Positions 18,190 to 21,772 of a stretch of DNA of 64,000 bases are shown piece by piece. The stretch comes from Anaerolineae bacterium (GTDB lineage: Bacteria > Chloroflexota > Anaerolineae > Anaerolineales > UBA4823). A program made the translations under genes and the position numbers. Position 1 is the first letter of the stretch. Each line of letters starts with the position of its first letter. The DNA is taken from NCBI GenBank assembly GCA_003327455.1, contig QOQU01000008.1, forward strand, positions 889 through 64,888. Reading direction: 5' to 3'. Below the pieces are notes generated by a model. That model saw only the letters and a program-made list of their open reading frames with translations, was not told the origin of the DNA and did no database searches.

Positions 18190-19773
18190 ATGAACCCACC
18201 AAAGCTGGAAAAGCACAGAATTCACCTCTCCAAAAGTTGGCTGTCGCTGAGCTTCCTCTTTACAATGGCTTTTCTTTATTGTTTTCCGGCGCTGCAGGCG
18301 CCATTTTGGGGCAGCGGCGATGCCTGGTCGAACCTGCTTCCTGTTGTTCACTACCGCCATTCCATTCTTGAGGAACATACTTTACCGGTATATACCGATT
18401 TATGGTATGGCGGGCGATACCAATGGCAAAATCCTTTGTGGAATTTTCTGTACCTGCCGGCTACCCTGCTCTGGCTGGCGTTTCCTCTCGATCTTGGCAC
18501 GCGTTTGGTTTATATCGGGCATTTAGGGTTCACGCTTTGGGCAGCCTATCTGCTAGCCAGTCTGTTTGTCCATTCCGAGATCGGAAGGGTAGCAGTGGCA
18601 ATCCTGTTAACTGCCCCGCTTCTCTCAGCCTTTTTGCCTGCCCATACGGAGAAGATCTTGTCGTGGGGCTGGGTTTTACTGGCGCTCTACTTTTTCTTTC
18701 AACCCAATCGGTCTGCGCTGAGCCGTGGTCTTTTAAGCGGGTTGTGCGTGGGCATTATCCCTCTCACTGGCTCAAACTACTACGCTTTCTATATGCTCAT
18801 GCTCATGGGTAGCCTGTTACTCGCTTATGGAGAGCGGAAAACATGGTTCGGCTTCCTGCTTACCGCTTCGATTGGTTTATTGCACCTGCCCAGTGTCTGG
18901 CATCTGATCGGGCAACCGCGCGGAAACCCCGCTGAACCAATCTCCAGCCTGGGAATCTCCATTGGAGGTATACTCCTCTCTCTGGCTGTTGGAGTGTCTA
19001 TCCCCTTAACATGGGAAAGCTGGGCGCCGATTGGATTGACCAGCATTTATCTTTTTTTCAGGTTCATTGTAAAGAACTTTCGTAGTCAGCAAAGACCGAC
19101 CAGGATTGAGCTGGCTCTCTCGGGCAGTTTGCTAATCTTCGTTCTGTTAGCAACGGCGGTCATCTATCGCGGTCACACGCTGTTGGATACCTTTCGCGTT
19201 CCAATGCGAGCCCTGCCCTTTATAGCTCTCACCATCCTTCTGATTCTACTCATCCAAATCGCCAGGAGCGATCAACATGGCGCTACTTTCTTTTTACTCG
19301 TCGCTGCGCTCCAGGTCAGCCTGACCAGCCTGCTCATCCGTCCAACTGGCAGCCCTTACAGCCCCTACGATCCTCAAGCACAAGCCTTTGCCGACCTTAT
19401 AAAGCAGCACGGGGCTCACCAGGTCTGGTTGCCCTCCGATAACGCGCAGGAAATGTTTTTACATGTCACGCTAAACCGCAATGGAATTGGGCTACCCAAT
19501 GTGTATTACGGGGATATGGGTCAGGAGCCGGCAATTTACGGCGCTCATTGTGGCTATGGTTTTGACCATCTGATAACCAGAATCCCCATTCGCACTCAAA
19601 CCTATCTCCTGAAACCCGACCTGTGGTGGACAACCTCCACGGGAACAATTGCGCGGCAGAATCTGCGCTTTATCAAAAAAACTTCCTTGTATGGACAGTC
19701 ACTCTATATTTATCGGGTGATTTGTGAGCATGGAACAGCTCCCGGGGGCGCGCAAACTTCTTCAGTGAAATAA
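18190..19773 (+). CDS. Polytopic membrane protein, possibly GT-C/YfhO-like
   Basis: About 12 hydrophobic segments and an N-terminal loop LPVYTDLWYGGRYQWQNP reminiscent of GT-C/YfhO loops. The family call is tentative. Confidence 0.5.
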   Translation: MNPPKLEKHRIHLSKSWLSLSFLFTMAFLYCFPALQAPFWGSGDAWSNLLPVVHYRHSILEEHTLPVYTDLWYGGRYQWQNPLWNFLYLPATLLWLAFPLDLGTRLVYIGHLGFTLWAAYLLASLFVHSEIGRVAVAILLTAPLLSAFLPAHTEKILSWGWVLLALYFFFQPNRSALSRGLLSGLCVGIIPLTGSNYYAFYMLMLMGSLLLAYGERKTWFGFLLTASIGLLHLPSVWHLIGQPRGNPAEPISSLGISIGGILLSLAVGVSIPLTWESWAPIGLTSIYLFFRFIVKNFRSQQRPTRIELALSGSLLIFVLLATAVIYRGHTLLDTFRVPMRALPFIALTILLILLIQIARSDQHGATFFLLVAALQVSLTSLLIRPTGSPYSPYDPQAQAFADLIKQHGAHQVWLPSDNAQEMFLHVTLNRNGIGLPNVYYGDMGQEPAIYGAHCGYGFDHLITRIPIRTQTYLLKPDLWWTTSTGTIARQNLRFIKKTSLYGQSLYIYRVICEHGTAPGGAQTSSVK

Positions 19774-19804: not shown

Positions 19805-19851
19805 TGTGATAAGAATAACAAAGATTAATATTGTTTGTGATTAATATCACA
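19805..19851. promoter_or_regulatory. Two tandem TGTGA-N6-T(C/A)ACA operator-like sites (Rex- or CRP/FNR-type)
   Basis: TGTGA-TAAGAA-TAACA (19805-19820) and a perfect TGTGA-TTAATA-TCACA (19836-19851), 31 bp apart. Confidence 0.6.
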
Positions 19852-19942
19852 GGTTTTTGATGACAGAAGTCTATCGTCAAAATTGGTAAAGCGTTGTATC
19901 CTTATACAGGATATGGGATTCAGGAAACTCTCCTGATGCTCA

Positions 19943-20047
19943 TCGCTGTTTCCTCCTTTGGCGAACGCCTCCGCCGGGTCTCCTCCTCACCGCCCCGGCG
20001 GAGGCCGATTTTAAGCGGTACATCCTCCCCACCAGCAGCCTGTACCG
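19943..20047 (+). ncRNA. Candidate small RNA with three UCCUCC-loop hairpins (strand uncertain)
   Basis: Stems at 19943-47/19960-64, 19967-78/19994-20005 and 20016-22/20041-47. Each loop contains TCCTCC. It lies between convergent genes. Confidence 0.4.
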
Positions 20048-20109
20048 GATGGTTGTATAACTCGTCTGACCATGACAACTTAATAGATCAATCTGACCTA
20101 CTGTACACA

Positions 20110-20145
20110 AAAGAAAAGGGGATGTCTGTTGTCCAGACATCCCCT
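20110..20145 (-). terminator. Intrinsic terminator of the hdr/fumarate-reductase-like operon
   Basis: AGGGGATGTCTG/CAGACATCCCCT 12-bp stem followed on the minus strand by TTTCTTTT. Confidence 0.85.
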
Positions 20146-20170: not shown

Positions 20171-21772
20171 CTAGTCTCGGCGGGCGTAATTGGGAATCAA
20201 GATCGGCGAGCGAACGGCGCCATTGACGCCAATCTCATCCAAAGCCCGATTCCAGCTTTCCAGGTGCGCCAGGGTCGGTTTTCCTGGCTGGCGTTCTTTT
20301 GCCAGTTGGGCAGCCGTCATGCCGGCGCGGCGACCAAACACACAGACATCCAGTAAACTGTTACCCATCAGACGATTCCGGCCGTGCACGCCGCCGCTGG
20401 TTTCCCCGGCGACCAGTAAGCCGGGTACAGTCGTCTGGCAATTGGCATCAATCTTAACACCGCCGTTCTGATAGTGCAAGGTGGGGTAAACCAGGATTGG
20501 CTGGTTCACCATATCAATGTTAAAACGCTTGAATTGACGCACCATGGCCGGCAGAGCTTTTTCGATTGTACCCGCACCGTGGATCAGATCAATCATCGGC
20601 GTATCCAGCCAGACTGCCGGTTGTCCACTTGGTGTGACCACACCCAGATTCCGTTCTTTGCACTCGCGAATGAAGGCAGCCGCCTCGACGTCGCGTGGTT
20701 CCAGGGGATAGACAAACTGTTCGCCTTTGACATTAACTGGTTGGGCGCCCAGACCGCGCACCTTTTCGGTGACCAATTGACCTAAAATCTGCTCAGGAAA
20801 GGCTGCCCCGGTCGGATGGTATTGCATGGTATCCAGAAAGGCCAGTTCGGCACCAACCCGGTAAGCTAAGACCAGCCCATCACCGGTGGCGCCATAATGG
20901 TTCGTAGTCGGAAAGCCCTGATAATGCAAGCGACCACTACCACCGGTTGCCAGGACAACCACTTTAGCCCTGGCATAGAAATAGCGCTCGGTCTCAAAAT
21001 TCATCAAAATCGCCCCACAAACCGCTCCGCGATCATCCAGCACCAGTTCCACCGCCGGGCAAAATTCAATTACATCTATATTGGGACGGTTGCGCACTTC
21101 ATCGCGCAAAACACGCATGATCTCTGCTCCGGTATAGTCCCTTGCTGAGTGCATGCGTTTGATGCTGGTGCCTCCACCGTGTTCTTCCATCATCATCCCG
21201 TCCGGGGTTTTATCGAACATGACACCCAGGCTTTCCAGCCAGGCAATCACAATTGGGGCATCTTTTACCAGTGCTTCCACCAGATCGGGGAAGTTGGTGA
21301 AGTGCCCTCCACCAATCACATCAAGGTAGTGCGTAGCCGGTGAGTCTTCCGGTCGATCGGCAGCCTGAATGCCACCCTGTGCCATCATGGTATTTGCGTC
21401 CCCAAAGCGCAACTTGGTAACCAGGGTAACCTTTGCACCATTCTCTTGCGCCATGAGGGCTGCGCTCGCTCCAGCCCCGCCGCCGCCGACGATTAACACA
21501 TCCGTCTCAAAATCAGGATCGCTTAAGTCGAAATGAGCATCAATGTGCGGCCGCCCTTCAATGACATCCGCCAGTTCAATTGGCATGCGATTGCCTTTAT
21601 AACTACCGATGCGAACCTCGCGCATGCCTGACTCAATGTAATCCGGATGAAATTTCCGGAGCAATTCCTGGCGCTCTTCAAGAGGCATTGCCGGAAAGGT
21701 TTGTCCCAGGCGTTGAGGGCGCGTGGCTTCGACAACCTTAATTTGTTCGAGTAGTTCCGCTGTATAGGTCAT
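20171..21772 (-). CDS. Soluble fumarate reductase/succinate dehydrogenase-family flavoprotein (TfrA/SdhA-like)
   Basis: DVLIVGGGGAG FAD motif, AQGG, QYHPT, TEKVRG, EPRD, LHYQNGG and HGRNRLMGNSL. Confidence 0.9.
   Translation of the reverse strand: MTYTAELLEQIKVVEATRPQRLGQTFPAMPLEERQELLRKFHPDYIESGMREVRIGSYKGNRMPIELADVIEGRPHIDAHFDLSDPDFETDVLIVGGGGAGASAALMAQENGAKVTLVTKLRFGDANTMMAQGGIQAADRPEDSPATHYLDVIGGGHFTNFPDLVEALVKDAPIVIAWLESLGVMFDKTPDGMMMEEHGGGTSIKRMHSARDYTGAEIMRVLRDEVRNRPNIDVIEFCPAVELVLDDRGAVCGAILMNFETERYFYARAKVVVLATGGSGRLHYQGFPTTNHYGATGDGLVLAYRVGAELAFLDTMQYHPTGAAFPEQILGQLVTEKVRGLGAQPVNVKGEQFVYPLEPRDVEAAAFIRECKERNLGVVTPSGQPAVWLDTPMIDLIHGAGTIEKALPAMVRQFKRFNIDMVNQPILVYPTLHYQNGGVKIDANCQTTVPGLLVAGETSGGVHGRNRLMGNSLLDVCVFGRRAGMTAAQLAKERQPGKPTLAHLESWNRALDEIGVNGAVRSPILIPNYARRD

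Follow-up and report, generated by a model that had tools for sequence, protein, structure and literature searches.

The question raised by this locus is whether a run of small hairpins in an intergenic gap forms part of an RNA gene and, if so, on which strand that gene lies and how its product might act. The window, a stretch of 64,000 nucleotides (nt) of contig QOQU01000008.1 from an Anaerolineae bacterium of the order Anaerolineales, contains a 397-nt gap flanked by two convergent genes. In this gap a first-pass annotation had proposed a candidate small RNA (sRNA) at 19897-20047, with three consecutive hairpins each displaying the anti-Shine-Dalgarno (anti-SD) sequence UCCUCC in its loop. 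All the hairpins and loop sequences that it described are present where it had placed them. As judged by comparison with related genomes, the flagged hairpins belong to a real, conserved non-coding RNA gene, which is a new family of a known kind. We read the segment 19909-20012 (+) as an independently transcribed, non-coding, trans-acting sRNA gene, whose product would be an Hfq-independent repressor occluding the SD sequences of its targets, and we give this reading a probability of roughly 60%. The genome holding the window is called G000 below, window position 19805 corresponding to C3:20693.

When the gap was compared by BLAST with 40 relatives, 27 of the 41 genomes gave one match each, with 78–93% identity over about 19915-20018; the matching relatives span different genera and several of the order's families. 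The element is conserved in orthologous intergenic regions, where the first-pass annotation had suggested looking for loop motifs and stems. A covariance model (R1) was used for genome samples. It was positive in 137 of 301 sampled Anaerolineales genomes (111 of 210 among the high-quality ones) and in 21 of 301 genomes of a class-wide sample, and a phylum-wide sample gave a single weak match outside the order. An exact 25-nt pattern, CATCGCTGTYTCCTCCTTTGRCRAA, occurs in at least 120 species genomes, all labelled Anaerolineae, Anaerolineales or Chloroflexota. Two of these come from cultured strains, Longilinea arvoryzae KOME-1 (sRNA at L090 2962-3078) and Bellilinea caldifistulae GOMI-1 (L092 6548-6660). 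By these searches the RNA family is essentially confined to the order Anaerolineales, where about half of the sampled species carry it.

Nearly all of the 137 positive genomes contain one copy, and four contain two. Tandem copies about 250 nt apart were seen in one genus of the order (G478 C5:41082-41436 and G495 C94:5738-6099), and in G520 and G601 a second copy of the sRNA lies elsewhere in the genome. A weak second R1 match, of 23 bits, is found in G000 at C13:80437-80553. It is a similar GC hairpin (GCCUCCACCGG...CCGGUGGAGG) with ACCUCC in the loop and without the invariant seed block, and may be a decayed paralogue or a look-alike terminator.

The conserved unit, 19909-20015 in the alignments, begins soon after a −10 hexamer and ends with TTT(T)AA past a GC hairpin. 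The start of the transcript is a prediction, 7 nt after the −10 (± 2 nt), and its end was placed in the U tract. The parts are listed below, with the evidence in brackets:

~19909-20012, + strand: predicted sRNA transcript of about 104-105 nt (covariance-model match at 19904-20017, 116.9 bits).
19913-19943, + strand: 5′ stem-loop (minimum-free-energy folds of 127 homologues).
19920-19936, + strand: inner hairpin of the 5′ part, UCAGGA/UCCUGA.
19938-19965, + strand: near-invariant block GCUCAUCGCUGUUUCCUCCUUUGGCGAA, the presumed seed (column conservation).
19949-19959, + strand: anti-SD core UUUCCUCCUUU.
19967-20005, + strand: 12-bp GC-rich hairpin with arms 19967-78 and 19994-20005 (covariation).
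20009-20012, + strand: U tract, UUUU followed by AAG, the presumed 3′ end (TTT(T)AA in nearly all homologues).
20016-20047, + strand: third hairpin, 7 bp, loop UCCUCCCCACCAGCAGCC (not conserved, outside the RNA).

The alignment of homologues (A1) has 22 invariant and 19 nearly invariant columns. It includes a near-invariant block of 26–28 nt, GCUCAUCGCUGUYUCCUCCUUUGGCGAA. Around the anti-SD core, a hairpin at 19943-19964 has a 6-bp stem, including two G-U pairs, and the loop UUUCCUCCUU. The 12-bp hairpin carries a 15-nt loop, UCUCCUCCUCACCGC, in which the motif CCUCACCGC is conserved (CUCAC is present in 88 of 100 sequences). The outer stem of the 5′ stem-loop joins AUGGG (19913-17) to CUCAU (19939-43), the latter from the invariant GCUCAU. 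Three equivalent UCCUCC loops had been proposed; instead, only UUUCCUCCUUU is invariant, the second motif is CCUCACCGC and the third hairpin lies outside the RNA, since sequences diverge completely right after TTTAAG, over 20016-20047, even among six genomes of the same genus. At the other end, the first small hairpin, 19897-19913 (TATCC/GGATA), overlaps the conserved −10 hexamer TATCCT and is therefore promoter DNA rather than RNA structure. Thus, of the extent originally assigned, 19909-20015 is conserved, and the outer parts, 19897-19913 (−10 region) and 20016-20047 (divergent), have to be removed.

On the + strand, the region 19880-20060 folds at −65.4 kcal/mol (z = −3.43), and none of 200 dinucleotide shuffles folds as well. 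Covariation was counted on 100 model-aligned homologues (A2). The terminator helix shows compensatory changes in 9 of its 11 modelled pairs, with 98.9% of cells paired. None of 500 shuffles reached the observed values, and slid controls fell to 34–61% paired. The covariation expected of genuine stems was accordingly obtained for the 12-bp and 19920-19936 hairpins, which are well supported, and not for the short stem UCGCUG/UGGCGA around the UUUCCUCCUU loop, where none was detected among the 100 sequences; five unpaired departures there are uncompensated, so that this stem around the anti-SD motif is an unproven helix. The shape of the 5′ part is kept in most of the folds of the 127 homologues (median z −1.5; 40% below −2), and its inner-stem sequences vary widely between genera. 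In most homologues the purine-rich strand of the outer stem, AUGGG or AUGAG, pairs with the invariant CUCAU. The seed itself occurs in two variants: 47 of 50 sequences with GUCUCC have GAGAC near the 5′ end, against 2 of 79 with GUUUCC, whose 5′ ends are varied. Minimum-energy folds of the GUCUCC type pair 5′ GGAGAC with GUCUCC. This pairing may represent a seed-occluding helix, and shared ancestry could also give the association.

The strand follows from three features that agree with one another. The terminator helix contains 28 G-U/U-G cells and 4 A-C/C-A cells, the latter corresponding to wobbles of the other strand, and in 130 promoters the boxes and −10 described below precede the RNA on the + strand, with the U tract after it. 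Conservation and strand thus bear out the candidate + strand sRNA with anti-SD-like motifs. The RNA gene is non-coding: the length of the terminator loop ranges from 5 to 20 nt and does not change in threes (44/31/25 by residue class), and an AUG precedes GCUCAU in only 28 of 100 sequences.

The promoter was examined on 130 distinct upstream regions, which gave the consensus tGTGAa.AA.ATCAC-N9-aTGAtcTTtGaCAAT-N22-TATnAT. The elements found in the window are as follows:

19805-19820, no strand: additional upstream box TGTGATAAGAATAACA, differing from TGTGA-N6-TCACA at one position (this genus only).
19836-19851, no strand: box A, perfect palindrome TGTGATTAATATCACA, centred at about −65 from the predicted start.
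19859-19874, no strand: box B, GATGACAGAAGTCTAT, counterpart of consensus aTGAtcTTtGaCAAT, centred at about −42, in the usual place of a −35.
19897-19902, + strand: −10 hexamer TATCCT (T-A-x-x-x-T at a fixed distance in the 130 promoters).

The distance from the start of the palindrome to the −10 hexamer is exactly 61 nt in 88 of the 130 promoters; this hexamer reads TATGAT, TATTAT, TATCAT or TAAGAT in other genera. Box B is a good match for the first half-site only. The boxes and the −10 are conserved whatever the upstream gene, and upstream genes are varied among the 130. The sRNA had been described as lying downstream of an operator pair, and boxes are indeed found upstream of it, the extra box at 19805-19820 being the distal half of that pair. 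A TTGACA is present and does not qualify as a −35 because its distance to the −10, 24 nt, is too large. With positions counted from the predicted start, this layout suggests an activator-dependent (class II-like) promoter of CRP/FNR type.

Perfect TGTGA-N6-TCACA sites are not in overall excess in the G000 genome (5 observed, 3.4 expected); four of the five are intergenic; among one-mismatch sites, 27 of 81 fall in intergenic DNA, which represents 8.5% of the genome. The four intergenic perfect boxes precede the sRNA, nrfH-nrfA, a DUF438-hemerythrin-PAS gene and a tandem universal-stress-protein gene. The nrfH-nrfA pair (cytochrome c552 nitrite reductase) has the box upstream and a CRP/FNR-family gene adjoining, the whole locus being C17:157893-160543. 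The CRP/FNR gene occupies C17:159851-160543, and a paralogue of it is found at C8:34402-35073. In G000 the box is centred about 29 bp before a −10-like TAGAAT, which places it near −41. Upstream of nrfH, a box with at most 2 mismatches is kept in 12 of 16 nrfHA loci of other genera and families (L159-L183), and at least 10 loci, across Anaerolineales genera, also keep a CRP/FNR gene next to nrfHA. The recognition helix of this protein reads REVLAR; the R-E-x-x-x-R pattern of CRP reads TGTGA. The nrfHA-linked protein looks like a dedicated nitrite-reductase regulator. The box type of the sRNA is the same as that of nrfHA, and we put forward the hypothesis that both are under one regulator responsive to nitrite or nitric oxide (NO). 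The redox control suggested by the first-pass annotation has only indirect support, from the presence of this box type before nrfHA operons.

The two other boxed genes show features of their own. At C8:11068-12914, 66 nt separate the perfect box TGTGATTTTAGTCACA from the DUF438-hemerythrin-PAS_10 gene, after which comes a DUF1858 gene; among the relatives DUF438 is rare, occurring in 2 of 41 genomes. At C4:78189, the perfect palindrome TGTGACAATTGTCACA is followed by TATATT, a structured leader starting AGAAAAC and the tandem universal-stress-protein gene. The start of this leader resembles the 5′ end of the sRNA of other genera.

We then compared the RNA with described families. In an Rfam 15 search, no family was above threshold for the window (E up to 10) or for 8 homologous loci (E up to 1). 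The only model to score was ar14 (RF02344), with 26.7 bits in the window (E 0.017) and 26.4 bits in a relative, both short of the gathering score, 58.8. Neither the literature nor Rfam yielded a regulatory RNA of Anaerolineae, in line with the view that such an RNA is undescribed in this lineage. The locus nevertheless shows what is generally expected of an sRNA gene, namely its own promoter and a covarying GC hairpin with U tract, independent of the neighbouring genes, although simple consensus scans call neither.

A resemblance to the alphaproteobacterial cuckoo RNAs had been pointed out. The cuckoo/alpha-r14 group, including CcsR1-4 and NfeR1 (RF02344; PMC4615179, PMC8034643, PMC10746234), shares with the Anaerolineales RNA the presence of CCUCC anti-SD-like motifs in the hairpin loops of a small RNA. 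Cuckoo RNAs are defined by 2–4 adjacent hairpins with the same CCUCCUCCC loop motif and by several copies per genome (PMC4615179), in varied 'nests'. In contrast, the Anaerolineales RNA is single-copy, its two conserved motifs, UUUCCUCCUUU and CCUCACCGC, differ from each other, and it occurs outside the Alphaproteobacteria, in the absence of Hfq and with no DUF1127 gene upstream. With the sub-threshold ar14 score and without the repeated CCUCCUCCC module, membership of this family was rejected.

A functional counterpart may be RoxS/RsaE of Bacillales (RF01820; PMC4409812, PMC6158497), an sRNA that is likewise conserved and single-copy, measures about 100 nt and is transcribed from a regulated promoter of its own. 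RoxS pairs with SD sequences through C-rich regions and responds to NO by way of a site near −65; its regulation of ppnKB did not depend on Hfq to any major extent (PMC4409812). The likeness extends to unpaired C-rich motifs directed against SD sequences and blocking initiation, here suggested by sequence complementarity, and to a regulator site near −65 tied to respiration with NO or low oxygen, here through the box type common with nrfHA. The two RNAs differ in that a full CCUCC anti-SD with U-rich flanks replaces the CCCC runs, and CRP/FNR-type boxes replace the ResD/SrrA or Rex sites. They belong to different phyla and have no sequence or model similarity; the RF01820 model gave no match in the window (E up to 10) or in the 8 homologous loci (E up to 1). 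CyaR of Enterobacteria (PMC11795201) offers a parallel in the CRP-type control of its promoter, in a strongly conserved seed targeting the ompX SD, in a conserved terminator-loop sequence and in a seed-occluding alternative fold, to be compared with the GGAGAC:GUCUCC pairing predicted here. CyaR is Hfq-dependent, unlike an RNA from a genome that lacks Hfq; there is no homology between the two, and the regulator here may not sense cyclic AMP.

How might the RNA act? The invariant block exactly mirrors UUCGCCAAAGGAGGAAACAGCGAUGAGC, a sequence in which 8 nt separate a strong SD from an AUG. The pyrimidine-rich stretch CGCUGUYUCCUCCUUUGGCGAA is the complement of a strong ribosome-binding site (AAAGGAGGAAA plus flanks), and complementarity of the seed to AAAGGAGG is evident. 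Since the 3′ tail of the G000 16S rRNA reads GAUCACCUCCUUUCU, AAGGAGG-type sites are the expected ribosome-binding sites. No Hfq was found in the G000 genome. In the mechanism that we propose, the RNA would be induced via the TGTGA-type boxes at about −42 and −65, from a promoter without a good −35, and would pair with the SD and start-codon regions of several mRNAs without the help of Hfq. Pairing would block 30S binding and probably trigger decay. In the GUCUCC subgroup, 5′ GGAGAC can base-pair with the seed and might thereby act as a gate. The loop of the terminator hairpin bears a second conserved C-rich motif.

Searches for partners gave several candidates that were discarded. No long trans complement of the RNA exists in the G000 genome. 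A 17-nt match at C10:41616-41632 (CCUCCUUUGGCGAACGC) is sense-identical and lies at the 3′ end of a cysK-like gene (SFGERY codons); it is not a target, and although only about 0.01 such matches are expected by chance, we take it as a coincidence. Another match, of 14 nt, falls on IAKGG codons of an E1-alpha gene (C19:77160) and was dismissed as a coding coincidence. Pairing of the seed with 16S/23S rRNA (−27.7 kcal/mol) was no better than that of shuffled seeds (mean −26.5 kcal/mol). When the translation initiation regions of G000 were ranked, the top ones were those of a penicillin amidase, a CoA-transferase, a thiolase (C4:288449), acetyl-CoA synthetase (Acs, C5:32908) and an MFS_2 sugar transporter. 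They are suggestive of acyl-CoA and carbon metabolism, as leads only.

Several observations weigh against an SD-occluding sRNA. No conserved mRNA target was found among the candidates, and the ranked initiation regions do not form a single functional group. The best mirror image, in the MFS_2 transporter (C8:30730), was rejected as a target, its spacer complementarity being lost in orthologues below about 95% identity. An invariance of 26 nt exceeds the usual need of a base-pairing seed and leaves room for a protein or other partner. On the transcriptional side, a sigma-70 scan found no canonical −35/−10 pair at the sRNA promoter, which fits an activator-dependent CRP/FNR-type layout, and the sRNA hairpin, which has a large loop (15 nt) and a short 3′ U tract of only four U, is therefore missed by the simple terminator scan. 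Finally, the distribution of the nrfHA-linked CRP/FNR protein speaks against it as the regulator of the sRNA: orthologues of at least 43% identity are missing from G008, G012, G013, G023, G029 and G032, all of which keep the sRNA and its boxes. A regulator gene adjoining the sRNA was found in a single case: G029, from one family of the order, has a CRP-family gene (HTH_Crp_2) at C13:21626-22045, immediately upstream and in the same orientation.

The genes around the sRNA differ between genomes. In the window, the upstream gene is an open reading frame of 527 aa (18190-19773, +) without Pfam domain, whose homologues occur only beside the sRNA, in the same genus. The downstream gene, at 20171-21772 (−), belongs to FAD_binding_2 (fumarate-reductase-like) according to Pfam and leads into ferredoxin-like genes. 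It has its own terminator:

20117-20145, − strand: intrinsic terminator of the FAD_binding_2 gene (terminator scan).

This terminator, about 100 nt from the sRNA gene, stops the FAD_binding_2 transcript short of it. Only in this genus is the sRNA flanked by the 527-aa gene and the fumarate-reductase/Hdr operon, and the functional tie to the Hdr operon, toward whose 3′ end the RNA had been said to point, was rejected on this ground. Elsewhere, in 96 of 145 loci (L007-L147), the convergent neighbour is instead a GAF-PAS-HisKA-HATPase sensor histidine kinase, which ends +40 to +320 nt from the point where the invariant core begins (CGCUGU in the seed block). Its end falls at or slightly past the sRNA hairpin, with the stop codon often within the TTTAA tail. 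As no U run follows the hairpin on the kinase strand (−), the 3′ untranslated region (UTR) of the kinase may be antisense to the whole sRNA, and an antisense relation is possible in those genomes. It is inapplicable in this window, because of the terminator at 20117-20145.

These neighbours invite a cis-antisense explanation, in which the RNA would be the partner of the convergent kinase, with a fully complementary kinase 3′ UTR and mutual control. Its attraction lies in the frequent proximity of the kinase end to the sRNA core and in the minus-strand hairpin without a following U run. In the window's genus, however, the kinase is replaced and the new neighbour has its own terminator, and the sRNA and promoter are still fully conserved (110–117 bits); moreover, an antisense role does not need the invariant anti-SD motif. 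We regard it as decidedly unlikely. A decoy function starts instead from the extreme invariance of the RNA: the pyrimidine-rich, 16S-tail-like stretch and the CCUCACCGC loop would titrate a conserved protein and not bind mRNAs; this protein could be a ribonuclease, a regulator that binds RNA or a factor recognising the anti-SD tail, for example. The 26–28 nt that are near-invariant across the order, far beyond typical seeds, the existence of a second conserved loop motif and the failure to find a conserved mRNA target would all be accounted for. Nevertheless, no candidate protein partner emerged, the conserved neighbour being a histidine kinase and not an RNA-binding protein; part of the invariance comes from intramolecular pairing (GCUCAU with the 5′ strand, GUCUCC with 5′ GGAGAC), and frozen sequence is known for multi-target seeds. 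This explanation is unlikely in our view.

The minus strand deserves the same scrutiny, since it reads AAAGGAGGAAACAGCGAUGAGC, a model SD followed by AUG, and since GGAGGA loops recalling CsrA-titrating RNAs had been noted on it. It could form a leader or attenuator with a mini-ORF, or a GGAGGA-rich CsrA sponge, and the check for csrA made in this connection was positive (PF02599 match of 85.7 bits at C14:39855-40010 in G000). Yet the peptide after the AUG (here 7 codons, MSIRRVS) is unrelated in length and sequence between homologues, the fold on this strand is weaker (z = −1.86), and no conserved promoter lies on that side, the boxes, −10 and U tract all fitting the + strand, as do the wobble pairs by 28 to 4. 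There is no Rfam match of CsrB/RsmZ type, and a sponge of this type was rejected, GGAGGA loops being displayed only on the strand that is not functional. A functional minus strand is thus very improbable. The strongest structural feature, a GC hairpin followed by U, together with the weak look-alike at C13:80437-80553, might finally suggest no gene at all, only a repeat or a conserved terminator whose C/U-rich loops are fortuitous. The single copy per genome speaks against a repeat; the conserved promoter with transcription-factor boxes about 100 nt upstream, whatever the upstream gene, and the 28-nt invariant block outside the hairpin also count against this explanation, which is hardly credible.

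Taken together, these results favour a trans-acting, SD-occluding sRNA. A more ambitious picture, which we consider doubtful, would make it the first riboregulator of Chloroflexota known across an order, a translation brake under a TGTGA regulator shared with nrfHA that reprograms carbon and energy metabolism on nitrite or NO, as an independent counterpart of RoxS/RsaE that is antisense-coupled to the GAF-PAS kinase in most genomes. The link to a TGTGA-box regulon including nitrite reductase is testable. If the SD-occluding reading holds, the RNA would provide a further independent case of anti-SD sRNAs acting without Hfq. Anaerolineales, which abound in sediments, hot springs and anaerobic digesters, are slow-growing and genetically hard to study; a single-copy sRNA with a regulated promoter, present in about half of the sampled species, offers an entry point to post-transcriptional control in the phylum.

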